Below the pieces are notes generated by a model, which was given only the letters and a program-made list of their open reading frames with translations, was not told the DNA's origin and did no database searches. Of a stretch of 64,000 nt of DNA, positions 2,186 through 43,539 are shown piece by piece; position 1 is the stretch's first letter, and every line of letters begins with the position of its first letter. The position numbers were made by a program, and so were the translations under genes. The stretch spans positions 41,785 to 105,784 of the IMG/VR virus record IMGVR_UViG_3300005563_000031, one strand, 5' to 3'. The DNA is from a virus.

Positions 2186-3691
2186 ATGGTCACTGCAGTA
2201 AAGGTACAAGGTAATGCGCTCGTAGACGGCGACGGTACGCCGCTACAGCTGCGCGGTGTAAACTGTTCGGCGCTCGAATTCGTGGCGATCCAATACGCCT
2301 CCGCATCCCCCAAAACCAACTTCGATAACTGGGGCGGCCAAAAGCCGAATCTCAGCGCTGTCAAGTCCTGGGGCGCCAACAGCATCCGTGTGCCTCTCAA
2401 CGAGCAAAGTTACCTTGGACTCGTATGCACTGACCAAACCGGTGCGCAACTTTTGGCAGATCCGGGCGGTAACTACCGCAGTGCTGTGAAAGCGATCGTG
2501 GACAGTGCGACCGCATTGGGGTTGGCGGTGATTTTGGACTTGCACAAGAACACCGCCAACTTCACACCGGCCGGCGCCAGTACGGCAGTGCCTGGCTTGT
2601 CCAACACGAGCGGACAGTCGGAGATGGCGGATGCCGACCACAGCTACGACTTCTGGTCGGCGGTTGCGAACGATTACAAAACCTACCCCAACGTGCTGTT
2701 TGACCTCTTTAACGAGCCGCATATTGACAATTTCCAAAATCCCAGCACTTTCTCACCAAACCCCGGCACTAGCTTGCCGGCAGGACTGAACACCGAAGCG
2801 GCATGGGCGTGGGCTGTGTGGCGCGACGGGGGCACCGGTAAGCTGATCTACGCCAACAACCAGACCTACTCGCAGAACTATGCCTCTGCCGGCATGCAGG
2901 CCATGTTGGATGCCGTGCGCGCGACCGGCGCCACGAACATATGCATGGCGGGCGGGGTATCGTGGGCGCAAGACCTTGCGTTGTGGACGCAGTTTTGTCC
3001 CATCGATCCGATCAAACAACTGGCGTGCTCGTGGCATGCGTACCCGAGCCAACAGAACCCCGCCTACCCGAGCTATCCGCCGGGCACGTGGTGGGGGCAG
3101 CCGAAGGGCTCGTTTGATTACGCAGCCGACATTCTCGCCGCCGGCTACCCGATCATTATCGGCGAAACAGGAGACGATCCCAACAACCAACTCATGCCTG
3201 TACTGTTGCCGTGGGCGGATGCGCACAAAGTATCTGTTACCGCGTGGACATGGGATGTGGGGTGGGGGAATGATTCACTCATTGCGGATGCGAGTGGCAC
3301 ACCTGTAAACACCGGCATCGCGTACAAACAATGGCTTCAAACGCACACCTCCGGAGGTACTCCTGTGTCCACTACCCAAAATGCAGCCCTGTCGATCGCC
3401 TACAACAGCGTGGCCGGTTTCCCGGCGGGCAGCGTCGTTGACCACATCAACGTTGCACTTACGGCGAAAAACAACACCGCCAACACCCCGCCTGCCAAAA
3501 ACGTCGCGCCCGGCACTGCCAATGTGACCTTCACAGGACTCGCACCGGACACGTACCAAATTGCCGTGCAAGCAATGCCAGCGACGGGCAGCGGGTTTGG
3601 CACGCCGGCAAGCGGCTCGATTACCATTACGCAAGTCAACACCACTATCTCGTTGTCGCTGCCAAGCACTGTCACTGCTACACAGCCGTAA
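2186..3691 (+). CDS. GH5 (cellulase-family) glycoside hydrolase with C-terminal Ig/Fn3-like domain
   Basis: LRGVN, WGANSIRVPLN, VILDLH, FDLFNEP (acid/base), SWHAY, PIIIGETG (nucleophile), AWTW. Confidence 0.9.
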   Translation: MVTAVKVQGNALVDGDGTPLQLRGVNCSALEFVAIQYASASPKTNFDNWGGQKPNLSAVKSWGANSIRVPLNEQSYLGLVCTDQTGAQLLADPGGNYRSAVKAIVDSATALGLAVILDLHKNTANFTPAGASTAVPGLSNTSGQSEMADADHSYDFWSAVANDYKTYPNVLFDLFNEPHIDNFQNPSTFSPNPGTSLPAGLNTEAAWAWAVWRDGGTGKLIYANNQTYSQNYASAGMQAMLDAVRATGATNICMAGGVSWAQDLALWTQFCPIDPIKQLACSWHAYPSQQNPAYPSYPPGTWWGQPKGSFDYAADILAAGYPIIIGETGDDPNNQLMPVLLPWADAHKVSVTAWTWDVGWGNDSLIADASGTPVNTGIAYKQWLQTHTSGGTPVSTTQNAALSIAYNSVAGFPAGSVVDHINVALTAKNNTANTPPAKNVAPGTANVTFTGLAPDTYQIAVQAMPATGSGFGTPASGSITITQVNTTISLSLPSTVTATQP

Positions 3692-3975: not shown

Positions 3976-4051
3976 TGGATCACCCGGATGGAATCGAACC
4001 ATCATGTACGATGTTCAAAGCATCGTTGGGATACCAGTAACCCACAGGTGA
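3976..4051 (-). tRNA. tRNA-Gln(TTG)
   Basis: cloverleaf, loop CTTTGAA, encoded CCA. Confidence 0.9.
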
Positions 4052-4054
4052 AAA

Positions 4055-4189
4055 ATGAGTCGATTTGAACGTGTGGTGATCCAACTGCTGATCATTATCG
4101 CTAATAGGGTAGCGCGCAGTGCATCACCTGCAGACAGAATAAACATCGATCACGACGGGTGGCCGATGTACGGCGACAAACCCTTTTAA
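4055..4189 (+). CDS. 44-aa hypothetical protein antisense to the tRNA array
   Basis: ATG..TAA fills the spacer between the two Gln tRNAs; AGGTG upstream. Confidence 0.45.
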   Translation: MSRFERVVIQLLIIIANRVARSASPADRINIDHDGWPMYGDKPF

Positions 4190-4190
4190 A

Positions 4191-4266
4191 TGGATCAGGC
4201 GGTTGGAATCGAACCAACGTGAACTGCGTTCAGAGCGCAGTGGGGATGCCAGCAACCCACACCTGA
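4191..4266 (-). tRNA. tRNA-Gln(CTG)
   Basis: cloverleaf, loop CTCTGAA, CCA. Confidence 0.9.
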
Positions 4267-4274
4267 GAATTTCT

Positions 4275-4457
4275 ATGACAACAGAGAAAACTGCTATTTG
4301 CGGAGCGATCCGGCCTCAAGAAAAGCCTACGTGCCGACGTTCGCAAAAGATTGGCGGGCCGCGCTATGTTTGTGGACGCGAACCGAAGCACGAGGGGCCG
4401 TGCGGCTGCTGGCGGTTTTTGTCGCAGGTCGCTGCTGCGAAATTGGCGGGAAGGTAA
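4275..4457 (+). CDS. small Cys/His-rich hypothetical protein
   Basis: MTTEK...CGREPKHEGPC; occupies the Gln-Trp spacer. Confidence 0.45.
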   Translation: MTTEKTAICGAIRPQEKPTCRRSQKIGGPRYVCGREPKHEGPCGCWRFLSQVAAAKLAGR

Positions 4458-4515
4458 GGAGTTGCACCCTACTTTTGGGGTTTGGAGTCCCATAGCTCGC
4501 TCCGAGCACCGACCC
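4444..4515 (-). tRNA. tRNA-Trp(CCA)
   Basis: loop CTCCAAA, CCA; two acceptor mismatches; T-loop TGCAACT. Confidence 0.8.
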
Positions 4516-4523
4516 GTGAAACT

Positions 4524-4886
4524 ATGCCTATCTACGGTAGTCTAACACTACGCGCACGAATACTGGCAAACGATGAGCCGGCGTGGTTGAAAAAGCACGC
4601 ACGCCGCGATTACATCGTGCAAGTACATCTTGCCACACCACGCTGGTACTCGCGTAAAGAAGTCGTACGGCTTAAGCAGAAGGCGCACGAGCTGTCGAAA
4701 GCGAAACGACGCAAGTACGTACTGGACCACATCATCCCCCTCACACACAAGCGCGTATGCGGTTTAAACGTACACCACAATATGCAAATCATCGATGCCG
4801 GCACGAATGCGCGCAAATCCAATCACTGGTGCGAGTGGCACGGGGAGTTATTCGCGGAACCTGAGCAGTTTCCACTGTTTCGATAG
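4524..4886 (+). CDS. HNH endonuclease
   Basis: ATPRW...DHIIPL...VCGLNVHHNMQII...NARKSN. Confidence 0.8.
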   Translation: MPIYGSLTLRARILANDEPAWLKKHARRDYIVQVHLATPRWYSRKEVVRLKQKAHELSKAKRRKYVLDHIIPLTHKRVCGLNVHHNMQIIDAGTNARKSNHWCEWHGELFAEPEQFPLFR

Positions 4887-4887
4887 C

Positions 4888-4972
4888 GTGCCGGGCGCCG
4901 CGTGCCCATCGGTGCTAGGAAGTTTTGTGGCCCGCAAGCGGGGAAGATTCCTACGACGGGACGCCCATGCAC
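4888..4972 (-). ncRNA. rod-like structured RNA candidate
   Basis: nested helices GGGCG/CGCCC, CCCGTCG/CGATGGG, TAGGAA/TTCCTA, CCCGC/GCGGG. Confidence 0.5.
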
Positions 4973-4974
4973 TC

Positions 4975-5063
4975 TGGCGGAAGGCAGTGAACTCGAATCA
5001 CAAACGCTTATCGCGTTCCATCCGCTTTCCAAGCGGCTCGAGGCCCTGCCTCGTTTACCTTCC
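4975..5063 (-). tRNA. tRNA-Ser(GGA)
   Basis: long variable arm, G73, CCA. Confidence 0.9.
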
Positions 5064-5068
5064 AATGT

Positions 5069-5157
5069 TGGCGGATACCGTAGGAGTCGAACCTACACGG
5101 CCCGTTAAGACCCTAACACCGCTTTCAAGGCGGGCGAGCGCGCCAGTGCGGGTATCC
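5069..5157 (-). tRNA. tRNA-Ser(TGA)
   Basis: long variable arm, loop CTTGAAA, CCA. Confidence 0.9.
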
Positions 5158-5165
5158 GAAAAGTA

Positions 5166-5223
5166 GGTGAGGCCCGGTGCAGCGGATAGCACTTGGACAG
5201 GTGCGTCCACACCGGGGGTCACC
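5166..5223 (-). ncRNA. structured RNA candidate (hairpin with possible pseudoknot)
   Basis: GGTGA/TCACC, CCCGGTG/CACCGGG, TGGAC/GTCCA; loop GCAC complementary to downstream GTGC. Confidence 0.45.
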
Positions 5224-5231
5224 GAGCAGCT

Positions 5232-5275
5232 GAACCGGAACTGCGCTTGTTCCTTACTGGCCTTTCGGCCGGTTC
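5232..5275 (-). ncRNA. three-way-junction RNA motif, copy 1
   Basis: GAACC-[GGCC GAAA GGCC]-AGTAA-[GGAAC..GTTCC]-GGTTC; 22 nt identical to copy at 6119-6140. Confidence 0.65.
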
Positions 5276-5292
5276 GTTTGCGAGTATAAGGG

Positions 5293-5383
5293 CACTTGCG
5301 CGCGGGTGCAGTCGCTTACTGCACCTTGCGTCACGACCAACGCGCAGCAGGAGCGACACTGCCGCCATGGCGTCTAGCAAGTG
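5293..5383 (-). ncRNA. multi-branch RNA with kissing loops
   Basis: closing stem CACTTGC/GCAAGTG, four internal hairpins, complementary loops TCGCT and AGCGA. Confidence 0.55.
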
Positions 5384-5388
5384 TTTTC

Positions 5389-5476
5389 TGGCGGATGGCA
5401 ATGGAGTCGAACCACAAGCGCTTGCGCACTCCATCTGTTTTCGAGGCAGTGCTGACACCGTGTCAGTTTACCATCC
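5389..5476 (-). tRNA. tRNA-Ser(CGA)
   Basis: long variable arm, loop CTCGAAA, CCA. Confidence 0.9.
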
Positions 5477-5490
5477 GTAAAATCTAAGGC

Positions 5491-5567
5491 GGTTAGGTTT
5501 AAGTAGGGGGCAAACCCTTACCCGGCGCCGGGCCCAGCATCACCGCAAGCCCCTACCAGTCTTGACC
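5491..5567. ncRNA. structured RNA candidate (strand uncertain)
   Basis: GTAGG(GG)/(CC)CCTAC closing stem; CCCGG/CCGGG and GGG/CCC hairpins. Confidence 0.35.
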
Positions 5568-5589
5568 AGCAAGTACCGGTAGGAATGTT

Positions 5590-5678
5590 TGGCGGAAAGC
5601 AGTGTACTCGAAACACACACCCGTTAGGATGCCCTCTGTTTAGCAAACAGGTACGAGCGCCTGCCCGTTTTACTTTCC
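5590..5678 (-). tRNA. tRNA-Ser(GCT)
   Basis: long variable arm, loop TTGCTAA, CCA. Confidence 0.9.
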
Positions 5679-5684
5679 GTAAAT

Positions 5685-5763
5685 TGGTCCCCGCAGCAGC
5701 TTGGGGAGCTGCGACCGTCCGGTTAAAAGCCGGATGCTCTTCACCCGTGTGAGCTATACGAGG
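5685..5763 (-). tRNA. tRNA-Lys(TTT) with non-canonical T-loop
   Basis: loop CTTTTAA, all stems intact, CCA; T-arm GCAGC-TCCCCAA-GCTGC. Confidence 0.8.
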
Positions 5764-5769
5764 AATGTT

Positions 5770-5845
5770 TGGTGCTCAGTGATGGAGTTGAACCATCTAT
5801 CTCCGCGTTACGAATGCGGCGCATCGCCGGCAATGCTTACCGAGC
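5770..5845 (-). tRNA. tRNA-Thr(CGT)
   Basis: loop TTCGTAA, CCA. Confidence 0.9.
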
Positions 5846-5945
5846 TTATCGGAATAAGAAGACTGTACCAAACATGCTCGCACCATCGGCAGCAAAACAC
5901 CGCGCGCCATCCTCGTAGTCGTTTGCCGCACTGTCTGCAGTTCAT
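5808..5945 (-). CDS. 45-aa putative zinc-finger protein
   Basis: MNCRQCGKRL...FCCRWC; 3' end overlaps tRNA-Thr. Confidence 0.35.
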   Translation of the reverse strand: MNCRQCGKRLRGWRAVFCCRWCEHVWYSLLIPISSVSIAGDAPHS

Positions 5946-5959
5946 GTTGGAATTATACA

Positions 5960-6034
5960 TGGAGCCCCACGTTGGACTTGCGCCAACCCTCGCTACTTAC
6001 AAGGCAGCTACACCGCTATCTGTGTTTGTAGGGC
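5960..6034 (-). tRNA. tRNA-Thr(TGT)
   Basis: loop CTTGTAA, CCA, T-loop CGCAAGT. Confidence 0.85.
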
Positions 6035-6042
6035 GAAAAGTA

Positions 6043-6087
6043 CCGCCGAGCCCCTGTGCACACGCAGGTATTGGAAAGGCCCGGCGG
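6043..6087 (-). ncRNA. bulged hairpin RNA candidate
   Basis: 10-bp stem CCGCCGGGCC/GGCTCGGCGG, 9-nt bulge, apical hairpin. Confidence 0.4.
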
Positions 6088-6099
6088 ATTTTGCAATTA

Positions 6100-6140
6100 G
6101 AACCAGACGCTGGCGCCTTTACTGGCCTTTCGGCCGGTTC
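6100..6140 (-). ncRNA. three-way-junction RNA motif, copy 2
   Basis: same core as 5232-5275 with a different but still pairing P3 (AGGCG/CGTCT). Confidence 0.65.
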
Positions 6141-6159
6141 AATATGCATACTAACATGT

Positions 6160-6235
6160 TGGTGCCTCACCGACGAATTGCACGTCGCGCCTCATCTTTA
6201 CCAAAGATGCGTTCCGCTCGCAGAACTTGAGAGGC
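6160..6235 (-). tRNA. tRNA-Thr(GGT)
   Basis: loop TTGGTAA, CCA. Confidence 0.9.
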
Positions 6236-6242
6236 AGTAAAT

Positions 6243-6316
6243 TGGCCTCCACGGTTGGACTCGAACCAACAACAGCAAGCCTTCGGAGGGCTCGCGCCGT
6301 ATCCGACGGCGTGGAG
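6243..6316 (-). tRNA. tRNA-Arg(CCG)
   Basis: loop CTCCGAA, short D-arm, CCA. Confidence 0.85.
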
Positions 6317-6323
6317 TTTAAAG

Positions 6324-6397
6324 TGGCACCCCCGGTTGGACTCGAACCAACATATCTGCCGTTCGTAGCGGCGGATCCTTGTTCCGAAGGCAGGGGC
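6324..6397 (-). tRNA. tRNA-Arg(ACG)
   Basis: loop CTACGAA, CCA. Confidence 0.85.
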
Positions 6398-6409
6398 GTA
6401 GAAAACTGT

Positions 6410-6474
6410 CCGGCGGCAGTAGGCGCGAGTACGGCTTGCGCTTTCGCCGCGCACTTACCTTAAAGGCCTGCCGG
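6410..6474 (-). ncRNA. structured RNA candidate
   Basis: CCGGC/GCCGG closing stem; apical CGGC-GAAAGCGCAA-GCCG. Confidence 0.4.
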
Positions 6475-6482
6475 TATGGCCG

Positions 6483-6653
6483 TTACACCGGTTTGTAAAG
6501 GGCTTGGTAGTAAAATAAATGGTTTAGCGTGTCTGAACACAGGCGCTCGCACACTGCCACACCACCGGCCAATAACCACCCTTTGTTTAGGTAGTCAGTG
6601 ACTTCGTTATTAAAGTACTGCAAGTTTGTGTTACTTACTACGATGTATTTCAA
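6483..6653 (-). CDS. DUF1737-like small protein (56 aa)
   Basis: TTG start; KYIVV...FNNEVTDYLNKGWLLAGGV...YYQAL resembles DUF1737; absent from the ORF track. Confidence 0.65.
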   Translation of the reverse strand: MKYIVVSNTNLQYFNNEVTDYLNKGWLLAGGVAVCERLCSDTLNHLFYYQALYKPV

Positions 6654-6656
6654 TGT

Positions 6657-6752
6657 TGGTACTCGATGTAGGATTTGAACCTAACCCGTTGCAGCCAGTC
6701 CGACCGCTCTCGCACGCTTATAAGGCGCACCCGCACACCAGTGCTATCGAGT
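6657..6752 (-). tRNA. tRNA with TAT anticodon (Ile) and long variable arm
   Basis: acceptor ACTCGAT/ATCGAGT, loop CTTATAA, ~27-nt variable region, A73, CCA. Confidence 0.8.
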
Positions 6753-6764
6753 ATTGCTCCTTTC

Positions 6765-6840
6765 CGAGGGGCGGCGGGCAGTGTAGTTAGCGACGCTACA
6801 CTGAGTTGGGAGCTACCCAACCAACCCCGCAGGCCCCTCG
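6765..6840 (-). ncRNA. three-way-junction RNA with kissing loops
   Basis: CGAGGGGC/GCCCCTCG plus GCGGG/CCCGC; hairpins GTTGGG/CCCAAC and CAGTGTAG/CTACACTG; loops TAGC and GCTA. Confidence 0.6.
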
Positions 6841-6850
6841 TACTTCTTTG

Positions 6851-6927
6851 TTGCGGTAGCTGGACTTGCACCAGCCTTAAATCGGCTTATGAAACCGTGG
6901 CGAAACTACCTTCGACCATATACCGCA
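6851..6927 (-). tRNA. tRNA-Met/Ile2(CAT), no encoded CCA
   Basis: loop TTCATAA, acceptor TGCGGTA/TACCGCA. Confidence 0.8.
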
Positions 6928-7099
6928 AAATTGTGCCCGCTTCGCTTTTCATTTCGTGGCAACGGACTAACACGCGGTGGCACCTATCAGCTCCCTACAT
7001 GCATGCAACGCATTTGGGCGGGGATGGAGGCAGGGGTTAGGGAATGCGCATGTCTAGAATACGCCAATACACCTAAAGCCGTACCAACACCCCCATACC

Positions 7100-7174
7100 T
7101 GGTAGCGGGAGAGGGATTCGAACCCCCGACCTTCTGGTTATGAGCCAGACGAGCTACCTCTGCTCTATCCCGCA
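7100..7174 (-). tRNA. tRNA-fMet(CAT)
   Basis: loop CTCATAA, 1:72 mismatch, CCA. Confidence 0.9.
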
Positions 7175-7183
7175 TCAAACAAT

Positions 7184-7239
7184 GCCGCGTTCCTCTTATA
7201 TACCGGATACGCGGCCAACCCGGTATTGCAATTCGAGGA
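7184..7239 (-). ncRNA. H-type pseudoknot RNA
   Basis: S1 ATACCGG/CCGGTAT, S2 GCCGCGT/ACGCGGC, loops 4/2/9 nt, purine-rich L3. Confidence 0.6.
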
Positions 7240-7314
7240 GGTGCTGTTGGGACTATCCTACAGGAGAACAAAGGACAGACCGGACTTATGGACGCTACGT
7301 GTCCCAACAGCACC
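7240..7314 (-). ncRNA. RNA closed by a perfect 14-bp terminal stem
   Basis: GGTGCTGTTGGGAC/GTCCCAACAGCACC around a 47-nt loop. Confidence 0.55.
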
Positions 7315-7344
7315 GACAACCGAACTATACAGCGAACTTTGAAT

Positions 7345-7419
7345 TGGTGCCTCGAGAAGTGCTCGCACCTTCGTATCTGGGTTTTCAGGCCAGCGCTACT
7401 CTGTCTCAGCTATCGAGGC
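7345..7419 (-). tRNA. tRNA-Phe(GAA)
   Basis: loop CTGAAAA, CCA, atypical T-loop. Confidence 0.85.
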
Positions 7420-7425
7420 AAATAC

Positions 7426-7511
7426 TGGTCCTCACGGCTGGACTTGCACCAGCACGCCGGTTAAGGCACAGCGTTCTCAACACTGCGTGTCTGCTGTTTC
7501 ACCACGCGAGG
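7426..7511 (-). tRNA. tRNA-Leu(GAG)
   Basis: long variable arm, loop TTGAGAA, CCA. Confidence 0.9.
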
Positions 7512-7518
7512 AATAGTT

Positions 7519-7767
7519 TCAACGGATCGTTTCAATAGTCTTACCATCCTCGTTCATAATGTAGGCGACGTTGTAGGAACAGGACTGGTCCATTCCCACT
7601 GTTACCTCTGTAGTTTCACCCGGTGCGTCGCCGCACTGTATAACCGCGCACAAGTTTTCCTTGTACGTTACGTGGACGGCTTTCGCCTCACGCACTGATA
7701 TCGCTTCTGTGTATGAGGGCTTAGCGGGCGCTTCTGGCCCGTACTTATAGAATTTTACTGTCAACAT
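7519..7767 (-). CDS. hypothetical protein
   Basis: ORF fills a tRNA spacer; C-terminal AYIMNEDGKTIETI. Confidence 0.75.
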   Translation of the reverse strand: MLTVKFYKYGPEAPAKPSYTEAISVREAKAVHVTYKENLCAVIQCGDAPGETTEVTVGMDQSCSYNVAYIMNEDGKTIETIR

Positions 7768-7797
7768 AGTCTACTCGTCCTACTACTGCTAAGAAAC

Positions 7798-7881
7798 TGG
7801 TACCTCTGGTGAGAGTTGCACTCACACACCTTGCGGCGCCGGAATTTGAAGCCGGTGCGTCTGCTGTTCCGCCACAGAGGC
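7798..7881 (-). tRNA. tRNA-Leu(CAA)
   Basis: loop TTCAAAT, variable arm, CCA. Confidence 0.9.
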
Positions 7882-7887
7882 AAAAGT

Positions 7888-7964
7888 TGGTATCCCCGGC
7901 GGGAGTTGCACCCGCAGTTGAACGGATTTTAAGTCCGCTGTGTCTGCTATTCCACCACGAGGAT
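7888..7964 (-). tRNA. tRNA-Leu(TAA) with short variable loop
   Basis: loop CTTAAAA, 77 nt, CCA. Confidence 0.85.
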
Positions 7965-7967
7965 GAA

Positions 7968-8038
7968 TGGGCACCCACGGTTGGAGTCGAACCAACGCTG
8001 GTAGCTTAGGAGGCCACTTTCGTTCCGCCGACGTGGGT
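7968..8038 (-). tRNA. tRNA-Arg(CCT)
   Basis: loop CTCCTAA, shortened D-arm, 3' end GCCCA. Confidence 0.75.
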
Positions 8039-8039
8039 A

Positions 8040-8201
8040 TCACAGATGAACAGTACCTGCGACTACGGTAATGGCGAGGATAAGGCAGATCAGCAGCACC
8101 GCAATGTGCAGCAGTGGGCCCGGTTTGCCTATCATCGACATGATCGTGATGATCGCAGCGGCGATCAAAAATACGAGAACGAGAATTGCAGCAGCACTCA
8201 T
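8040..8201 (-). CDS. 53-aa two-TM membrane protein
   Basis: AAGGAG SD; two hydrophobic helices. Confidence 0.7.
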   Translation of the reverse strand: MSAAAILVLVFLIAAAIITIMSMIGKPGPLLHIAVLLICLILAITVVAGTVHL

Positions 8202-8259
8202 GTTGGAAACTCCTTTTCTAACACGGGTGGGCGGTAGCAAGTAACGCTCCCGACACAGC

Positions 8260-8332
8260 TGGCACCCTCGGTTGGAGTCGAACCAACAGTCTGCGGCTTA
8301 GAAGGCGCGCTACCGATCCGGCCGGCGAGGGC
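8260..8332 (-). tRNA. tRNA-Arg(TCT)
   Basis: loop CTTCTAA, CCA. Confidence 0.8.
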
Positions 8333-8338
8333 GAAGGG

Positions 8339-8410
8339 TGGAGCGGAAAATGGGAGTCGAACCCATCAGCGGCGTCGTTGGCAACGATACCTCACACCAT
8401 GTGCATCCGC
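8339..8410 (-). tRNA. tRNA-Gly(GCC)
   Basis: loop TTGCCAA, U73, CCA. Confidence 0.85.
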
Positions 8411-8418
8411 ATGTTCAG

Positions 8419-8556
8419 TTCTTTCGTCCGTCCCACTGTTGCATTATGGGCAACCACCCGAGAGGATTTGCCGCTACCTCTGACATCTCCCACTTAAAGG
8501 AGGGAGCGCTCTGGTGCTCTGAGCTACGAGTGTTATCAACAGTCGCCACGAAAGAA
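8419..8556 (-). ncRNA. stalked tRNA-like RNA 1 (core 8454-8533)
   Basis: D-arm GCTC/GAGC, 10-nt anticodon loop, 11-nt T-loop, no CCA; flanks pair ACTGTTG/CAACAGT and TTCTTTCGT/ACGAAAGAA. Confidence 0.7.
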
Positions 8557-8558
8557 TT

Positions 8559-8634
8559 TGGTGCATGCTGTTGGATTCGAACCAACTGCCTCCCGGTTAT
8601 CAGCCGGGTGCGCATCCGTATGTGCCTCGCATGC
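8559..8634 (-). tRNA. tRNA-Ile(GAT)
   Basis: loop CTGATAA, CCA. Confidence 0.9.
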
Positions 8635-8643
8635 GAAATAGAT

Positions 8644-8744
8644 GTGGGTATTTGTCCGGCACCCACCGAGCCGTGCGGCTATTGCAGCGTAACCGCGACA
8701 CCTCCAGCGCTTGCATTGGCACTGGACCGGGCCGTTAAAGGTGT
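8644..8744 (-). ncRNA. multi-hairpin RNA candidate
   Basis: TCCAGTGC/GCGCTGGA, AGCCG/CGGCT, GTGGGT/ACCCAC, ACACC/GGTGT. Confidence 0.35.
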
Positions 8745-8856
8745 AGTGAAGTAGGATGTTTGGATTTGCACCAAGACCTCTGTTATTCCGCACGTCTGCG
8801 GATTCGACAGTGCTCTTCTATGACTGAGCTAACACCCTACATATTCACTATACCTT
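8738..8856 (-). ncRNA. stalked tRNA-like RNA 2 (core 8752-8839, no anticodon loop)
   Basis: 8-bp acceptor, 4-bp T-stem, D-arm; anticodon arm replaced by long hairpin; flanks pair TAGTGAA/TTCACTA and AAGGT/ACCTT. Confidence 0.7.
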
Positions 8857-8861
8857 GAAGT

Positions 8862-8936
8862 TGGTCGGAGTAGTAGGAATCGAACCTACCTTGTCGTGCT
8901 CCCAAAGCACGCGATCAGCCACTGACCCACACTCCG
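8862..8936 (-). tRNA. tRNA-Pro(TGG)
   Basis: loop TTTGGGA, C1-G72, CCA. Confidence 0.9.
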
Positions 8937-8993
8937 ATGGCGAGTGTCTCTCCGCTCCTGTCACGCCTGGATCGCCCGGCGTTCGGCATTGGC

Positions 8994-9071
8994 TGGTGCG
9001 GGTAGCAGGATTTGAACCTACGGCCCCGTGCGCCCGAGGCACGTGCTCTGACCAGACTGAGCTATACCCAC
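8994..9071 (-). tRNA. tRNA-Pro(CGG)
   Basis: loop CTCGGGC, CCA; G1-C72 instead of C1-G72. Confidence 0.85.
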
Positions 9072-9081
9072 ATGTTAGAAT

Positions 9082-9158
9082 TGGAGCACCCGGCCGGACT
9101 TGCACCGACGATTTTAACGCTTTGCAGGCGCCTGCATTTGCTGCTCTGCCACGGGTGC
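9082..9158 (-). tRNA. tRNA-Cys(GCA)
   Basis: loop CTGCAAA, U73, CCA. Confidence 0.9.
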
Positions 9159-9162
9159 GTGT

Positions 9163-9236
9163 TGGAGGGTCGTAATGGAGTCGAACCATTTATGGAGTCC
9201 GGTCACAGCGGAGTCCGGCTACCGAGCCAACGGCCC
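9163..9236 (-). tRNA. tRNA-His(GTG), atypical
   Basis: loop CTGTGAC, CCA; no G-1, U73. Confidence 0.75.
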
Positions 9237-9243
9237 ATTGTTT

Positions 9244-9327
9244 GTGCCTTCCCGCGCACGGCTTGCGGCCGGTCGATCGCGTGGCGCGAGTCACGGCGCA
9301 CTCCGAGGTGCGCTGGGCTTGATCGAC
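9244..9327 (-). ncRNA. structured RNA candidate
   Basis: GTCGATC/GATCGAC, GCGCAC/GTGCGC, CGGC-CGCAA-GCCG. Confidence 0.45.
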
Positions 9328-9332
9328 AAAGT

Positions 9333-9420
9333 TGGTACCTCTGGAGGGAATTGCACCCCCATGCCGTTTTACGGGCGCTGCGGTCTGAACGCAGTGTGTC
9401 TTCTGTTTCACCACAGAGGC
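9333..9420 (-). tRNA. tRNA-Leu(CAG)
   Basis: long variable arm, loop TTCAGAC, CCA. Confidence 0.9.
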
Positions 9421-9429
9421 AAAATGAGC

Positions 9430-9561
9430 ATTAGGACAGTGCGCTGGTGCCGCGTTGGCATTCGCGCAAACCTCCGTTAGACAGCGCTATCTAACATCAT
9501 CGATCCTGCTTTATACAGCTTGCATAGCCCCACTCGATATGGGACACGGCACTGTCCTAAT
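9430..9561 (-). ncRNA. 132-nt multi-branch RNA closed by a perfect 13-bp stem
   Basis: ATTAGGACAGTGC/GCACTGTCCTAAT; internal hairpins; loop ATCGA complementary to TCGAT. Confidence 0.6.
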
Positions 9562-9562
9562 T

Positions 9563-9637
9563 TGGTAGACCGTACGGGATTCGAACCCGCCTAACATGCT
9601 TGAAAGGCACGTTGCATCACCGAGACGCATACGGTCC
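9563..9637 (-). tRNA. tRNA-Glu(TTC)
   Basis: loop CTTTCAA, CCA. Confidence 0.9.
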
Positions 9638-9648
9638 GTAAAATTTAA

Positions 9649-9789
9649 GTGGCTCTGGCGCATAGGGGTACTCGTGTGAGGCGCATGCGCCACTGGCGGA
9701 GACAGGTACCTGGCACGACTTACGCACCGTTGCTGCGTCGTAACCTGCGCTGGCTTGCCAGGCGAGAGCGGTCTGTGCGGCAGAGCTAC
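9649..9789 (-). ncRNA. ~140-nt structured RNA candidate
   Basis: GTAGCTCTG/CAGAGCCAC, CCTGGC/GCCAGG, ACGAC/GTCGT, TGGCGCATG/TATGCGCCA. Confidence 0.5.
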
Positions 9790-9812
9790 TAAGTATACCG
9801 CACGACAAACAC

Positions 9813-9890
9813 TGGTAGACGTGACGAGACTCTAACTCGTTAGGCTACGGTTGAGAACCGCACTGCGCGAGACACTTTGCATTCACGTCC
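9813..9890 (-). tRNA. tRNA-Glu(CTC)
   Basis: loop TTCTCAA, CCA. Confidence 0.85.
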
Positions 9891-9898
9891 ATAAAAAT

Positions 9899-9970
9899 TG
9901 GTGGAGCTGTCGGGAGTTGAACCCGCAGGGTTTCCTTGCAAGGGAGACCCGTTGCCCGCAACACAACCCC
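9899..9970 (-). tRNA. tRNA-Ala(TGC)
   Basis: G3:U70, loop CTTGCAA, CCA. Confidence 0.9.
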
Positions 9971-9986
9971 GTGGTTCTTTGGTCTA

Positions 9987-10053
9987 GCCCAACATCTGAC
10001 GGCTGGGCAGGCGCACATAACAGCAACGTCACCGGTAATTAACTGCTACATGT
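9987..10053 (-). ncRNA. two-hairpin kissing-loop RNA candidate
   Basis: TAGCAG/TTGCTG and GCCCAGC/GTTGGGC hairpins; loops TGACG and CGTCA. Confidence 0.5.
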
Positions 10054-10072
10054 TGATCGCTTTTCGACTTAC

Positions 10073-10148
10073 TGGTAGGCCGCCAGGGATTCGAACCCTG
10101 GACCAACTGGTTAAGAGCCAGCTGCTCTTGCCGCTGAGCTAGCGACCT
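10073..10148 (-). tRNA. tRNA-Lys(CTT)
   Basis: canonical cloverleaf, loop CTCTTAA, CCA. Confidence 0.95.
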
Positions 10149-10156
10149 ATAAAGTT

Positions 10157-10244
10157 ACGCTTCCGGTCATCTGCGCCGAATATCCCGTGGGCTAGTACCC
10201 ACATGCTACAGGACATGGACGGGCGTACAGAGCCGGACTTGCGT
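10157..10244 (-). ncRNA. stalked two-hairpin RNA with possible pseudoknot
   Basis: ACGC/GCGT, TCCGG/CCGGA, TCTG/CAGA, CGCC/GGCG; loop TCCTG vs CGGGA. Confidence 0.5.
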
Positions 10245-10246
10245 TC

Positions 10247-10337
10247 TGGTGCGTCGCGGATGGAATCGAACCTCGTGCCCTAAAGGGACCTGGTTTACAG
10301 CCAGGCGAGCGGCCACCACTCCTTACTTGCGCAACGC
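10247..10337 (-). tRNA. tRNA-Tyr(GTA)
   Basis: loop CTGTAAA, long variable arm, CCA. Confidence 0.85.
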
Positions 10338-10342
10338 ATGGT

Positions 10343-10414
10343 TGGTACCCGATGTGAGGATTGAACTCACTCCACCAACTTTGTAGGAGTCGGCGCCGTC
10401 CCAACGGTCCGGGC
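10343..10414 (-). tRNA. tRNA-Val(TAC)
   Basis: loop CCTACAA (C33), CCA. Confidence 0.8.
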
Positions 10415-10420
10415 ATAAAC

Positions 10421-10648
10421 AAAAAGGATGACAATAGGCGTGCATCAGACGCCTCGTTTTACGTCACGGCTCGCGCCGCTTGGCTAGCTGCTCGCAGGTG
10501 GTCCGTAGACCACCATTTTCGTCACCGCTTCTACCAGCGGCTCCTCGAACGTCGTTAGGCCGACTACCCAGCCAATTCTCGTATCCTCAAAAATCGTTGA
10601 CGACCTATTTTTTATCGTGGTCAGCCGTCAGTGTTTTCCAGTCCTTTT
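10421..10648 (-). ncRNA. ~230-nt large structured RNA candidate
   Basis: terminal AAAAGGA/TCCTTTT, ACGGCT/AGCCGT, TTGGCTGG/CTAGCCAA, GGTGGTC-TACG-GACCACC, AGGCGT/ACGCCT, CCGCT/AGCGG. Confidence 0.6.
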
Positions 10649-10720
10649 TGGCGCCTCCAACGGGACTCGAACCCGTCACCCACTCGATAGACAGTCGAGT
10701 TTCACCCCAGGTGTAGAGGC
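10649..10720 (-). tRNA. tRNA-Asp(GTC)
   Basis: loop CTGTCTA, G73, CCA. Confidence 0.85.
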
Positions 10721-10736
10721 AGGTTCTAACACTTAG

Positions 10737-10810
10737 CTGTAGGCCTGGGGCTCGAACCCAGCGCATCTCCGTTAACAGCGGAGCCTACACGCCCGGTGCA
10801 GTTGCCTACA
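10737..10810 (-). tRNA. tRNA-Asn(GTT), no CCA, acceptor extended by leader-trailer stalk (10725-10823)
   Basis: loop CTGTTAA, G73; flanks TCTAACACTT/AAGTGTTAGA. Confidence 0.85.
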
Positions 10811-10825
10811 GCAAAGTGTTAGATT

Positions 10826-10899
10826 TGGAGCGGACGGTGGGAATCAAACCCACCTCATTGCGTTGGAAGCGCAAGGCCCAGTCACTAGACCACGCCCGC
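10826..10899 (-). tRNA. tRNA-Gly(TCC)
   Basis: loop CTTCCAA, U73, CCA; first tRNA of the operon. Confidence 0.9.
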
Positions 10900-11152: not shown

Positions 11153-11182
11153 ATACTAAATTCGATTCGATACACATTGCAA
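11153..11182 (-). promoter_or_regulatory. sigma70-like promoter of the tRNA operon
   Basis: TTGCAA-18 nt-TAGTAT, just downstream of a terminator. Confidence 0.65.
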
Positions 11183-18732: not shown

Positions 18733-19500
18733 TTACATGATAATTATTGTATCGCCCGAAGCGAGCGCTGCAGGTAATGCAGTTGTTGTGAAGCGCCGCC
18801 CGGCAGTTCCTGTGATATCCGTCAATATAACACCAACCCGCTTCAACATGCCCGTCGATGTCGTAACTAAAAAACCTTTGTTAGCATAAACAGGTGTGGA
18901 ATCAGTCTCCGTAATATCAGAACACTCGAATTGCGTGGTTGTGGGTGTAAAGCTCGCCGCACTCACAGTCCCCGTCGTACGCCCTGCCAGCTCGAGATAC
19001 AGTTTGGTTGCTGCGGGACCGTTGCCATTGATCTGCGTAACGTTAACGGGCAACACCCCGCCTGCCGCCGAAATAATCACATCGCCAATCGATTCGATGT
19101 CGACCTGTGCAGACAAGTCGATGATGAATGATTGCGGCGAGCAATTAGAACCCGAGGCTTGCACTGTTACTATCAAATAGTTGGCATTAGACGGCGTCAA
19201 CGCCGTGTTCAGCAACTGCAATTCGTACATGCCAGGATGGTTTGTCATATCAACCGGACCAAACCGACACGAGGCGGCAGCCGGCGCCACGTAAGTACCA
19301 GCAGTCGCAATGGACTGGATCGCGGACCCTGTGTACGAAGTACCCGCCGCTGCGTTGTCCGCAATCACCGAAATACGCAAACCCGATGTGGCGTTGGTTA
19401 GTGTGTTGAGCGTGCCGCCTGTGGTACTGCTGTTATCCATGAGGATAAAGCGAATTACTGCATTTTGGAACGCACCGTTGATACGTGAAATAAGAGACAT
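18733..19500 (-). CDS. virion structural protein
   Basis: T/A/G-rich ORF in tail module. Confidence 0.7.
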   Translation of the reverse strand: MSLISRINGAFQNAVIRFILMDNSSTTGGTLNTLTNATSGLRISVIADNAAAGTSYTGSAIQSIATAGTYVAPAAASCRFGPVDMTNHPGMYELQLLNTALTPSNANYLIVTVQASGSNCSPQSFIIDLSAQVDIESIGDVIISAAGGVLPVNVTQINGNGPAATKLYLELAGRTTGTVSAASFTPTTTQFECSDITETDSTPVYANKGFLVTTSTGMLKRVGVILTDITGTAGRRFTTTALPAALASGDTIIIM

Positions 19501-19506
19501 AATCCG

Positions 19507-20739
19507 TTAGCCTCCAACAAATCCGCCTGAGAAAATACCCGCCGGCAACATCATGCCACCGGTGCCTCCGCCTCCACCCGTAATGTTCATCGTGAAGAGG
19601 TTCGTATCTGCAACCGCCGTACTCACGGTGTTGTTCGTAGCTCGGAAAAAACACAGCGCGTTTGTCGCATTCGCTACCGGAGTGCCTGAGAACACGTTGC
19701 TCGAGATGCTGAGACCAGACACTGTGAGCGAATTCACAGGTAACGTATAAATCTGTGCACCACTCGAATAGGTCTGGTCGGCGGCAACAAGAATTGTGTT
19801 TGCGGTGGCATTTGTTGCCAGCACGCGCGTTGGTGTGCCGCCGGATGTAACTTTGATGTAGCCGTTAACAGTAATTGACGCAACCGACACAACGGCAATT
19901 TCACGCACCGCTGTACCGGCACTCGAAGTCGTCGTAGCCGCAGTGGCTGAACCTAACTGCTTAAGCGTCGCAGTGTAGGCGGCTGTCACCTCATCAAACA
20001 ACGGCAGCGTGCCGCTCGTACCGAGGTTAATCGAGCTGATCGCTACACCTACAGTGTAGTTCTGCGTGGGGATCGTCGTACCCGTCATGAACGTTTCAAT
20101 AGACGGATCGCTCGTACCGGCACCAATCGTGGCAGAGGGTGTTAGGTCGTTGCTGCCTATCTGGTCTGCAACCGGTGTTTCCGCCACACCTCCCACCGTT
20201 GCGAGCTTCCAATAACTCACCACACCTTTAATAGCGCGCGGATTGCCGCCGCCGCCAAGGTATGCCATTTCAGCATCCGACAACGCGCGAGCCCACGCGG
20301 CCATGTGTGCAGCTTGCCCGCCAATACCGAACGCGAAGTCACTCGGCCGCCCGGATACGAGCAACGCGGCCATCGCGGCGGGGGAAACAGTGGTACCGGA
20401 TGTTCCCTTTACCGTACCGTTAAGGTAGGAGGCGGCGGAGGAAGTCGACGCAAACACGGCGCCATAATGCTGCCATGTGCTCGTCGTAATCGCGCTCGTG
20501 AGTGCCTGGTTAGCACCGCCCGAGGAACTGCGGTAGGCACACAGTTTGTTGGAAGCACTCGTGACATCCAGCAAAATGCCAAAGCAGTTTGTCTCACTGT
20601 TACTGCCGCCATTTAACTGGAACAAGCGCCGGCCCTGACCGCCGGCGTTGTTGGTCCACATAACGAGCGTTAGCGGTACGGCGGTAGCAGGAACCGAGCT
20701 ACTTGAAAGATGTAGTGTGCCTGAAAATGTTTGTGACAT
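19507..20739 (-). CDS. LamG/ConA-like lectin-domain virion protein
   Basis: TWQHYGAVF...YLNG...WARALSDAE. Confidence 0.75.
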   Translation of the reverse strand: MSQTFSGTLHLSSSSVPATAVPLTLVMWTNNAGGQGRRLFQLNGGSNSETNCFGILLDVTSASNKLCAYRSSSGGANQALTSAITTSTWQHYGAVFASTSSAASYLNGTVKGTSGTTVSPAAMAALLVSGRPSDFAFGIGGQAAHMAAWARALSDAEMAYLGGGGNPRAIKGVVSYWKLATVGGVAETPVADQIGSNDLTPSATIGAGTSDPSIETFMTGTTIPTQNYTVGVAISSINLGTSGTLPLFDEVTAAYTATLKQLGSATAATTTSSAGTAVREIAVVSVASITVNGYIKVTSGGTPTRVLATNATANTILVAADQTYSSGAQIYTLPVNSLTVSGLSISSNVFSGTPVANATNALCFFRATNNTVSTAVADTNLFTMNITGGGGGTGGMMLPAGIFSGGFVGG

Positions 20740-41187: not shown

Positions 41188-43539
41188 TCAGTCCCTTGAG
41201 AACCAATCCGAATTTCCAAAGTACGCTATGCGCTTTAACTTTGGCATCGCTGCCACAAAACCCGGAACCGGCACAAAAAGACTCGATGCCAACACGGCAG
41301 ACGCGTAGCCGTTAAAGGTAATCGAACCGGCGCCAGGTATAATGGTAACCGGCGCAATCATAACAGGGGCTGCGCCCGTTAAGCCAATCGTACCGGCATT
41401 CGGCGTAATTCTCGTATCTGAAAGCGTTGAAACCGCTACGACTTGTCCGGTAATCAACAAATTACCAACACCCGGAACGAGTCGCGTATCCGCTACGCGA
41501 ACAACAGGCAAGCCGGTAATCGCGATAGTGCCGGCATTCGGCGTAATCGTCGTAGCACTACCAAGCTGCGGCGCTTGGCCTGCGAGAACAATGGTACCTG
41601 CGACGGGCGTGATAACTACAGGCGCCATAACTTGCGGCGCGTTACCTGCCAGCGTAATCGAACCCGCATTAGGTACGATAACGGTTTGGCCGCCGAGCTG
41701 CGCCAGCTGTCCTGAGATCGTAATAGAGCCGGTCGCGGGAGTAATCGTTACTGCCACGCGCGTCGTTGGGATTTGCCCGGTAAGGGCTATAGCGCCCGCC
41801 GCCGGACGCAACGTTACAGACAGCAACAATGCCGGTGCCGCCCCGGACAGCGTAACGCTGCCGGTGCTGGGCGTAATGAGGATTGCCCCACCGATCTGCG
41901 GAGCTTGCCCGGTAAGGGCTATAGCGCCCGCAGCGGGCGTAATAATCGTGGGCACGAGTAGTTGCGGTACGCCCCCCGCCAGCGTAATCGAACCCGTATT
42001 AGGTATGATCAGCGTTTGGCCGCCGAGCTGTGGCGGAGCGCCGCCGAGCGCAATCGAGCCGGTCAGCGGCTGTAGAAGCGTTCCTACGATGCGCGTGGGC
42101 GCTTGGCCTGCAAGAACGAGCGCAGCACTACCCGGCTGCAGCACCGTACCTGTACTTAACTGCGCCGCTTGACCTGTGATAGCAAGTGAGGCAGCGGCGG
42201 GCTGCAACACTGCACCTACGATTCGCTGCGCAGCTTGTCCCGTTACCGCAATGGCGGCTGCCGCCGGTTGAATAGTAGTGCTTGAGATTGTCTGCGCCGT
42301 CTGTCCTACTATCGCAATCGCGCCACTCGACGGTTGCAGGAACATATCCGCCACGCGCTGCGCACTTTGTCCGGCAAACGCAATGACACCCGCCTGCGGC
42401 TGGATTAGCGTATTGCGAATCTCTGTAGGCACTTGGCCTGTGAGCGTAATGCTGCCAGCCGCAGGCGTGATGGTGGTGTTGGCCGACACCGTAACCGTCG
42501 GTGCATAGCCTGTAATCGTGATGTTACCGGCGGCGGGGGGCGCAACCGTCAGTGTTTGAATCGAAATAAGACCTGCAAGAACGAGCGCGCCCGCATTAGG
42601 TGTAATGGTCGTGTTGGTATTATTGGTAATAGCGGGCGCTTGGCCTGCAATCGAGATAGTACCGGCGCTCGGTTGTAAAATCGTGCCTGATACAACGGCG
42701 GGCGCATTACCTGCCAGCGTAATCGCGCCGGTATTAGGTACGCGAAGTACGCGAGTAACGAGGGGTGTTTTGCCTGTGATGGAGATCGCACCTGCACTAG
42801 GTGTGATCGTTGTGTTGCTCGGTATGGTGGTGGGTGTTTGCCCCGTGATCGTGATCGCGCCCGCATTTGGCGTAATCGTTGTGCCGCTCGTAGCTTCTTT
42901 GAAGAAGGCGGCGAGCGATGCGAAGTTGTTCGAACCGCCACTATTCGAGAACGTAGCCGCAATCGCTGTCAGCGCGGTGTAACGCTTACTCTCAGAAACG
43001 GCTGTATTGCTGATTGTGAAAGTCCAGCCGTTGATTCCAGCAGTAAAGCCTGTTCCCGCTGCAGGCAGGTTAAAGTTAGAAGTACACACGCCCAGCGCCG
43101 ACAAGAGCCCCGGCTGAGTGTTGGGCGCGGCCGTGCCGGTTGTTACGTTGTCAGTGCCGTTGCCCAGCCCCGTTTGCAGTGCCGTTTTGTGCTGGGCGTC
43201 GTAACCAGAGGTGCCGCCGATCTCGCGGATCCAGATCGCAAGAAACCCAACCGAGACGTTAGGAGTTATCGTAACAGTAGGTGTGCCAGCCGCAGTATTG
43301 TCGAACTTGAAGTGTGCGAGCCGCTGTGTGTCACCGTTTTGATCGATCGTATCAAGCGCGGTGCCGTACGATCCATTAACACTGTCAGAACACGTGAACG
43401 ATGTTGCAGTATCGACAGCGGAGCAGAACACATGGATCGAACTGCCTGGAGTAACAGCGCTCGAAAACGCCAACTGAATGTTAGCTGCATTGGCTGAGTT
43501 ATTCGACGCCTGCCGCTCTTGGAGGACGCTGATAGTCAT
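41188..43539 (-). CDS. repeat fibre protein (~23-aa repeats)
   Basis: more than 20 copies of I-x-P-x-x-G-x-I-x-L-x-G-x-x-P. Confidence 0.8.
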   Translation of the reverse strand: MTISVLQERQASNNSANAANIQLAFSSAVTPGSSIHVFCSAVDTATSFTCSDSVNGSYGTALDTIDQNGDTQRLAHFKFDNTAAGTPTVTITPNVSVGFLAIWIREIGGTSGYDAQHKTALQTGLGNGTDNVTTGTAAPNTQPGLLSALGVCTSNFNLPAAGTGFTAGINGWTFTISNTAVSESKRYTALTAIAATFSNSGGSNNFASLAAFFKEATSGTTITPNAGAITITGQTPTTIPSNTTITPSAGAISITGKTPLVTRVLRVPNTGAITLAGNAPAVVSGTILQPSAGTISIAGQAPAITNNTNTTITPNAGALVLAGLISIQTLTVAPPAAGNITITGYAPTVTVSANTTITPAAGSITLTGQVPTEIRNTLIQPQAGVIAFAGQSAQRVADMFLQPSSGAIAIVGQTAQTISSTTIQPAAAAIAVTGQAAQRIVGAVLQPAAASLAITGQAAQLSTGTVLQPGSAALVLAGQAPTRIVGTLLQPLTGSIALGGAPPQLGGQTLIIPNTGSITLAGGVPQLLVPTIITPAAGAIALTGQAPQIGGAILITPSTGSVTLSGAAPALLLSVTLRPAAGAIALTGQIPTTRVAVTITPATGSITISGQLAQLGGQTVIVPNAGSITLAGNAPQVMAPVVITPVAGTIVLAGQAPQLGSATTITPNAGTIAITGLPVVRVADTRLVPGVGNLLITGQVVAVSTLSDTRITPNAGTIGLTGAAPVMIAPVTIIPGAGSITFNGYASAVLASSLFVPVPGFVAAMPKLKRIAYFGNSDWFSRD

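Follow-up and report, generated by a model that had tools for sequence, protein, structure and literature searches.

A probable structured RNA on a portable cassette, present in two spacers of a phage tRNA array and in a phage without tRNA genes

Do the spacers between phage tRNA genes contain genetic units of their own? Phage tRNA arrays are usually read as tRNA genes separated by junk spacers. The question is raised here by 64,000 nucleotides (nt) of viral DNA, hereafter the window, which comprise positions 41,785 to 105,784 (the final 64 kb) of the 105,784-bp IMG/VR virus record IMGVR_UViG_3300005563_000031. A minus-strand tRNA array spans approximately positions 3976 to 10899 of the window, and two of its spacers each contain one copy of a small three-way-junction motif. 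Based on the comparisons described below, the motif is very probably a real, selected and strand-specific RNA fold carried on a mobile cassette. It represents a small, so far rare new RNA family that is absent from Rfam, and the term portable phage RNA cassette suits it better than a description as a speciality of tRNA spacers.

The two copies and the core that they share are located as follows, with scores from R1, a covariance model of the motif.

5232 to 5275, minus strand: three-way junction, copy 1 (R1 score 45.3 bits, E 1.4e-11)
6100 to 6140, minus strand: three-way junction, copy 2 (R1 score 65.3 bits)
5254 to 5275, minus strand: invariant 22-mer of copy 1, comprising the 5' strand of P1, the whole of P2 and J2/3; identical to 6119 to 6140
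6119 to 6140, minus strand: invariant 22-mer of copy 2, from which the third copy described below (locus L020) differs at 2 of 22 positions, the two changes compensating each other

Copy 1, read from 5275 to 5232, is GAACC GGCC GAAA GGCC AGUAA GGAAC AAGCGCA GUUCC GGUUC, and copy 2, read from 6140 to 6100, is GAACC GGCC GAAA GGCC AGUAA AGGCG CCAG CGUCU GGUUC. In each copy, a 5-bp P1 (GAACC/GGUUC) is followed directly by a 4-bp P2 with a GAAA loop, and a 5-nt joiner leads to a 5-bp P3 that is flush with the 3' strand of P1; J1/2 and J3/1 thus have 0 nt, and J2/3 is AGUAA. This three-way junction is the minimum-free-energy structure of both copies on the minus strand, at -17.6 kcal/mol for copy 1 (z -3.5, 94% of the ensemble) and -16.5 kcal/mol for copy 2 (z -2.5), and it persists in both when the entire spacers are folded. 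An earlier reading of the window, made by a model from the sequence alone, had described two copies with 22 common nucleotides, a P3 that differs in sequence and yet pairs in each copy, and a minus-strand orientation fixed by a G-U pair. The coordinates and sequences check out, the folds agree, and the G-U pair in P3 of copy 2 (G25-U34) is real, while the best fold of the plus strand lacks P1.

The copies are separated by 865 nt and are not in tandem, an arrangement that differs from the tandem repeats of type III antitoxins, which a cognate toxin cuts. With up to 3 mismatches allowed, the shared 22-mer, GAACCGGCCGAAAGGCCAGTAA, still has exactly two occurrences in the window, and it is absent from 100 dinucleotide shuffles. 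Across the whole 105.8-kb genome, R1 matched the two copies only, and a descriptor scan returned these copies plus two chance-level matches, compared with 0-4 chance matches in shuffled genomes.

Further instances, which the sequence-only reading had proposed to seek, were found in another phage and as an allelic variant. Of 21 places that a structure-shaped pattern scan found in IMG/VR, only one has a paired P2, namely L020:5766-5806, which reads GAACC GGUC GAAA GACC AGUAA AGACG GAAG UGUCU GGUUC. Relative to copy 2, this locus has a C-G to U-A double change in P2 and two one-sided wobble changes in P3, one from G-U to A-U and one from G-C to G-U. In a model-guided alignment of the three copies, all 42 of 42 pair cells were paired and four pairs (one of P2, three of P3) had both members changed, whereas pairing fell to 11-50% in controls with slid partners.

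The fourth sequence came from Logan contigs of the soil run X5 aligned to the window, in which a relative of the window phage retains the copy-2 unit with five differences.

6116, plus-strand position: C to T, changing a P3 G-U pair to A-U, which is the L020 state
6146, plus-strand position: G to A, changing a possible outer pair from C-G to U-G
6096, plus-strand position: A to G, in an internal loop
6062, plus-strand position: A to G, in an apical loop
6075: loss of one U from an unpaired run, which is the L020 state

All five changes are structure-neutral; the adjoining tRNA-Thr carries 7 changes in 76 nt. The three-way junction is the minimum-free-energy structure of all four variants on the sense strand only. 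The transcribed strand carries every G-U pair, and in both phages the element points the same way as its flanking genes. The compensatory change in L020 and the X5 variant support the proposal that the fold is under purifying selection. The sequence-only reading had also taken the motif as evidence that the spacer RNAs in general are selected for structure. Its occurrence in a phage without tRNA genes makes it a weaker guide to spacer RNAs as a whole than that reading supposed.

The repeated unit is larger than first described. Copy 2 can be aligned to L020 across 96 nt with 81% identity, and this stretch is the sole non-coding similarity between the two genomes. It extends beyond the junction into a long hairpin on the 3' side, and a -10-like hexamer precedes each copy.

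6043 to 6087, minus strand: extended hairpin forming the 3' domain of the copy-2 unit, in which a GC-rich stem at the base and an inner hairpin are accompanied by the conserved unpaired UUUCCAAUAC
5166 to 5223, minus strand: similarly built extended hairpin forming the 3' domain of the copy-1 unit and aligning only weakly to that of copy 2 (shared UCCAA, UGCAC and GGG.CUC)
6148 to 6156, minus strand: putative extended -10-like box TGTTAGTAT, ending 7 nt upstream of copy 2
5283 to 5288, minus strand: -10-like hexamer TATACT, with its end 7 nt ahead of copy 1
6092 to 6095, minus strand: 3' strand (UGCA) of a possible, weak outer helix P0, pairing with 6145 to 6148 across a 4x4 internal loop

The copy-2 3' domain is homologous to L020:5822-5860, with two compensatory pairs, both in the inner stem, and its conserved unpaired run can be written UU(U)CCAAUAC. 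Between the end of the 3' hairpin and the next tRNA of the array there are 6-8 nt. The hexamers were found at three of three loci, ending 6-7 nt before GAACC (TATACT at copy 1, TGtTAGTAT at copy 2 and TGgTATAAT at L020), a spacing at which the base rate of a -10-like box is 0.9%. TGTTAGTAT is the sole TGnTAnnAT on the minus strand inside the array, and the upstream identities between copy 2 and L020 concentrate on the TG.TA..AT positions. The copy-1 equivalent of P0 would be 3 bp (5279-5281 with 5226-5228), and the X5 change at 6146 leaves the P0 pair as U-G.

The behaviour of the unit among genomes further suggests an accessory element. The record that contains L020, G001 (51,270 bp, 97% complete), has no tRNA genes, and its unit is flanked by the DNA-polymerase block on one side and the next gene on the other. 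Apart from this unit, it has almost nothing in common with the window phage (G000) beyond a small Cys-rich ORF, an ORF resembling an endonuclease gene and a single 42-residue piece. G002, a complete relative of G001 that has direct terminal repeats and whose DNA polymerase shares 73% identity with that of G001, does not contain the unit anywhere, so that the copy number is two, one and none in G000, G001 and G002, respectively. In a pairwise alignment of G001 and G002, approximately 130 nt are present in G001 only; the gap is flanked by conserved blocks, and one flank contains a gene-proximal box, GTGACGTAGTTC, that is kept in both genomes. In the X5 relative, the entire copy-1 spacer (5163-5388) is replaced by 102 other nucleotides with breaks at the tRNA borders. 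Within 5065-5685 of the window, 5553-5684 is likewise replaced by 135 nt, and 143 nt are inserted at 5065/5068. The array tRNAs remain 95-99% identical despite these swaps. These comparisons show a cassette of approximately 100-130 bp that moves between unrelated phages and comes and goes among close relatives.

Two further features of these genomes were noted. A second DNA segment shared by G000 and G001 (154 nt) was considered as another RNA and rejected, being the small Cys-rich ORF (19408-19561 of G000:C1, outside the window, and 1672-1825 of G001; 82% nucleotide identity). In addition, genes in G001 and G002 are preceded by a repeated intergenic box, GTGACGTAGTTCYTGA...GTCAGT (L020:5865-5900; L195:6509-6555 and 6791-6830), which is probably a phage-specific promoter or operator.

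Searches for known families and additional relatives returned little. The motif matched none of the 4227 models of Rfam 15 at gathering thresholds, nor any at E<=10 in searches of the 8-kb array and of 136- and 351-nt regions. The rows returned by the 136- and 351-nt searches were insignificant (E of at least 0.22, far under gathering scores): the 12-nt hairpin GGUCGAAAGACC aligned to DUF3800-XI (E 3.4-4.5), and there were chance rows to eukaryotic and viral models. No match was found by blastn in 50,697 GenBank phage records, and one genome from each of 185,579 prokaryote species gave two chance matches and no true one. In exact and degenerate pattern scans of IMG/VR, L020 was the sole true relative, the other matches lacking P1, P2 or P3; a weak R1 match at L075:7648-7695 was dismissed because it lies inside an 816-aa ORF. 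A first metagenome scan found none, and among the at least 118 matches listed by a second, none had both the GAACC P1 and a P3, and these were chance matches. The sequence-only reading had named an Rfam family or a REP-like repeat as outcomes that would overturn it, and neither was found. We also rejected a REP-type, MITE-type or other host interspersed repeat, given two copies in G000, one in G001, none in G002 and no match in prokaryote genomes. A protein-coding reading was rejected as well, since the copies differ by indels that would break the frame and the ORFs overlapping the element extend in antisense across tRNA genes.

Relatives of the window phage were equally scarce. A single-protein search with the tail protein and a tRNA-Thr 19-mer scan found no relatives, and an alignment-based search gave 41 loci, none with a tRNA array or the element. 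The closest relatives are on Logan contigs, with tail-protein identities of 69% (P0002) and 58% (P0003). Our literature search on structured RNAs in phage tRNA arrays found nothing specific.

The window contains tailed-phage genes for a portal protein, a large terminase and a GTA-type tail protein. The best match of the terminase has 33% identity, indicating that the phage has no cultured close relative. ARAGORN identified 23 genes in the tRNA array, further ones were found by Rfam, and relaxed ARAGORN settings added four tRNA-Ser genes. Both copies of the motif sit in spacers between isoacceptors, Ser/Ser for copy 1 and Thr/Thr for copy 2.

5389 to 5476, minus strand: tRNA-Ser(CGA), upstream neighbour of copy 1 (relaxed ARAGORN, Rfam search)
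5069 to 5158, minus strand: tRNA-Ser(UGA), downstream neighbour of copy 1 (relaxed ARAGORN, Rfam search)
6160 to 6235, minus strand: tRNA-Thr(GGU), upstream neighbour of copy 2 (ARAGORN)
5950 to 6036, minus strand: tRNA-Thr(UGU)-like gene, downstream neighbour of copy 2 (manual fold), its 5' end 6 nt past the hairpin

The tRNA-Thr(UGU)-like gene was missed by both ARAGORN and Rfam; its manual fold has a 7-bp acceptor stem, the anticodon loop CUUGUAA and a T-loop CGCAAGU instead of UUCRANY. The four tRNA-Ser genes (gga, tga, cga and gct; 4975-5678, minus strand) were detected under relaxed ARAGORN settings only, and three of them are weak tRNA-Sec-like matches in Rfam. Several array tRNAs have the T-arm GGACTTGCNCC in common (repeat family D12). 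At the head of the array, 11158-11182 on the minus strand reads TTGCAA-18-TAGTAT, with the same TAGTAT hexamer as in the box before copy 2. A 134-aa ORF antisense to the array (4482-4886, plus strand) matches phrog_26577 (E 1.7e-19) and, weakly, endonuclease VII. It looks like a homing-type endonuclease gene within the array, and a homologue with 39% identity occurs in the unrelated phage G001 (44706-44987). Adjacent to the array, on the plus strand, are genes for a glycoside hydrolase family 5 protein (cellulase; 2186-3691, E 5e-33) and for an HD-domain protein (908-2143) with a sub-threshold VWA match.

What, then, might the cassette do? The absence of the cassette from G002 and the replacement of copy 1 in the X5 relative indicate that it is dispensable for the adjoining gene and for the array, and for this reason we rank an accessory, trans-acting small RNA first. 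We propose this mechanism tentatively, judging it as a whole to fall somewhat short of an even chance. The cassette would encode an autonomous or processed two-domain structured RNA, with the junction as its 5' domain. On the minus strand, the predicted order is a 41-44-nt three-way junction, a 12-15-nt linker, the extended hairpin and a short U-rich tail. The start of the RNA, at or beside the G of GAACC, would come from initiation at an extended -10 promoter of the cassette itself (TGnTAnnAT or TATACT, 6-7 nt upstream) or from cleavage of an array precursor in the AU-rich stretch. RNase P processing of tRNA operons is established from the polycistronic tRNA transcripts of E. coli (PMC4176162). 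On that basis, RNase P cleavage at the 5' end of the next tRNA, 6-8 nt past the hairpin, may set the 3' end in the array, while in the phage without tRNA genes the hairpin plus AUUUUGU may act as a weak intrinsic terminator. The released RNA of approximately 100 nt would then act in trans. Almost no variation occurs in the 5' half of the junction, and P3 and the 3' domain vary freely, a pattern suggesting that the near-invariant face (P1, the P2 GAAA hairpin and the J2/3 AGUAA) may be a recognition surface for a protein or other factor, with P3 and the 3' hairpin serving as scaffold and protection. The cassette would thus be an accessory small RNA gene of the moron type, comparable in status to T4 RNAC and RNAD.

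Several observations weigh against this proposal. The partner is a putative factor. No RNA run is among the sequencing runs listed for the stretch, so we infer transcription, the RNA ends and stability. The comparative set consists of four sequences from two lineages, and P1, being invariant in all of them, has no covariation support. A start at GAACC conflicts with P0, which would need the RNA to begin upstream of the -10-like box. A test for small-RNA-gene signals found -10-like boxes at three of three loci and a downstream hairpin with a U-run, but promoter and terminator scans called neither: the consensus promoter scan found no sigma-70-type site in the array, none of the three -10-like boxes has a good -35, and the terminator scan did not call the 3' hairpin. 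U-rich leaders precede most array tRNAs in any case. Moreover, the replacement of the copy-1 spacer in a close relative implies that copy 1, at least, is dispensable.

Two alternatives keep the RNA fold and place its action in cis. The less improbable of them, which we nevertheless consider unlikely, is a promoter-proximal leader whose fold forms while the RNA is being made and whose target is the transcribing complex or the transcript. It could be a processive antiterminator of the put kind, enabling RNA polymerase to pass the many hairpin-plus-U spacers of the 7-kb array, or a structure at the 5' terminus that protects the RNA from 5'-end-dependent decay. Every copy lies 6-7 nt past a -10-like box, which would place P1 at the extreme 5' end, and there are two sequence-sharing copies per genome, as with the put RNAs of HK022 (PMC9378689). 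Stable hairpins followed by U-rich leaders abound in the array, and the G001 cassette stands at the head of a gene block. However, G002 would express the same downstream block without the cassette, from a conserved box that G001 keeps as well; there is no testable likeness to put RNA in sequence or fold, a plain 5' stabiliser would need neither the invariant 22-mer nor a three-way junction, and the promoters are only predicted. A module for processing or insulating tRNA precursors appears improbable. Such a closed spacer fold would prevent tRNA misfolding and present sites for RNase P, RNase E or RNase Z, with no function after release. The isoacceptor setting of both window copies, the closed domains formed by the spacers and the placement of the 3' hairpin 6-8 nt before the next tRNA fit this view, but the same cassette occurs in a phage without any tRNA genes. 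A generic role would not need an invariant 22-mer, the other array spacers have unrelated sequences, and a relative with the same tRNAs has exchanged the copy-1 spacer for an unrelated sequence. Doubtful as well is an extension of the trans-acting proposal in which the cassettes would form a new, horizontally mobile class of small RNA genes of soil phages, each with its own promoter and traded like a protein moron. In this extension, the junction would bind and redirect a host or phage machine, by making RNA polymerase terminator-resistant as put RNA does or by acting as a decoy for an RNA-targeting defence or nuclease.

The remaining alternatives set aside either the RNA or its function. If the cassette were a DNA-level signal (a mobile promoter or operator, or a recombination or endonuclease site), the fold would be a by-product. 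The -10-like boxes, TTGCCA-17-AATACT inside the L020 unit, TTGCAA-18-AATACC in copy 2, the candidate homing-type endonuclease gene shared by the array and G001, and the spacer swaps at tRNA borders are compatible with this reading. We nonetheless give it little weight: the compensatory changes preserve pairing and not base identity, the G-U pairs suit one strand only (they become A-C mismatches on the other) and the antisense does not form the junction, the differing P3 length makes the arm spacing vary from 31 to 34 bp, X5 alters the first T of the putative internal -35, and the internal -10 of copy 2 lacks its final T. The sequence-only reading had itself suggested tests of self-cleavage and ligand binding, and the three-way-junction architecture would suit a small ribozyme that cleaves itself, or the aptamer of a riboswitch in which the 3' hairpin is the expression platform; the order in G001 (promoter-like box, fold, hairpin with U-run, ribosome-binding site, ORF) is compatible with a riboswitch. 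This is very improbable, however, since no Rfam model matched at E<=10 in the 136-351-nt searches, the hammerhead core (CUGANGA, the GAAA strand and the cleavage-site H) is absent and two of the three junction strands have 0 nt. For a riboswitch, moreover, no alternative antiterminator pairing was found, the array copies precede tRNAs only, with no gene to regulate, and G002 has the same gene without the cassette. Least credible of all is a functionless remnant of a decayed tRNA or a chance product of local duplication. The position inside a tRNA array, proportions loosely like those of a tRNA minus its anticodon arm (5-bp P1, 4-bp arm, 5-nt joiner and 5-bp arm flush with P1) and 22 identical nucleotides that could mark a recent event might suggest it. 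Yet no tRNA or tRNA-like model matched at E<=10, neither ARAGORN nor RF00005 found a tRNA on 5232-5275 or 6100-6140, and T-loop and D-loop sequences are absent, the loops being GAAA and CCAG, GAAG or AAGCGCA. Decay is also at odds with the 81-88% identity kept in an unrelated phage and in the soil relative, where the changes are structure-neutral only, and we estimate the chance of GGUUC closure plus a flush 5-bp P3 in both copies at approximately 1e-4.

The trans-acting small RNA can be compared with several known systems. RNAC and RNAD of T4 are encoded in the T4 tRNA gene cluster and are matured with the tRNAs. Like the putative product of the cassette, they are small structured non-coding phage RNAs; unlike them, the cassette is also found outside tRNA clusters and moves between unrelated phages, and the likeness was checked only by the Rfam scan, which gave no match. 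Phage morons and mobile promoter cassettes are, as the cassette here would be, short accessory units with promoter-like and terminator-like ends of their own, inserted between operons and present in one phage while missing from a close relative. Classic morons carry a protein gene, whereas the cassette would carry a structured RNA alone. The minimal hammerhead ribozyme has in common with the motif a three-way junction of approximately 40 nt, a GAAA and short helices, and differs in its conserved core, which is absent here, in that two of the three junction strands are empty here, and in the lack of an Rfam match. RNAC and RNAD have been described as "RNAs of yet unknown functions" (PMC9697503). 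In HK022, two put RNAs of approximately 70 nt, each with two stem-loops, follow the early promoters and act over 10 kb (PMC9378689). putL and putR resemble the cassette in having two similar copies per genome, a length of approximately 70-100 nt, two domains, a location after promoters (putative ones here) and no protein gene (PMC9378689). However, put RNA is a V-shaped pair of long stem-loops with a triplex and has no three-way junction, shares no sequence similarity with the cassette and belongs to another host and phage type. As to a put-type antiterminator, the likeness is one of position and copy number only.

The finding is modest in scale, resting on four sequences. Even so, one spacer module of a phage tRNA array is a discrete structured RNA, conserved through compensatory change and exchanged between unrelated phages, and the X5 comparison, in which array spacers are swapped as cassettes at tRNA borders, offers a simple model of array evolution. 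The unit of approximately 100 nt is also a compact experimental handle. If the cassette does encode an autonomous small RNA or a polymerase-modifying leader, it would add an RNA-only type of moron to the accessory genes of phages.

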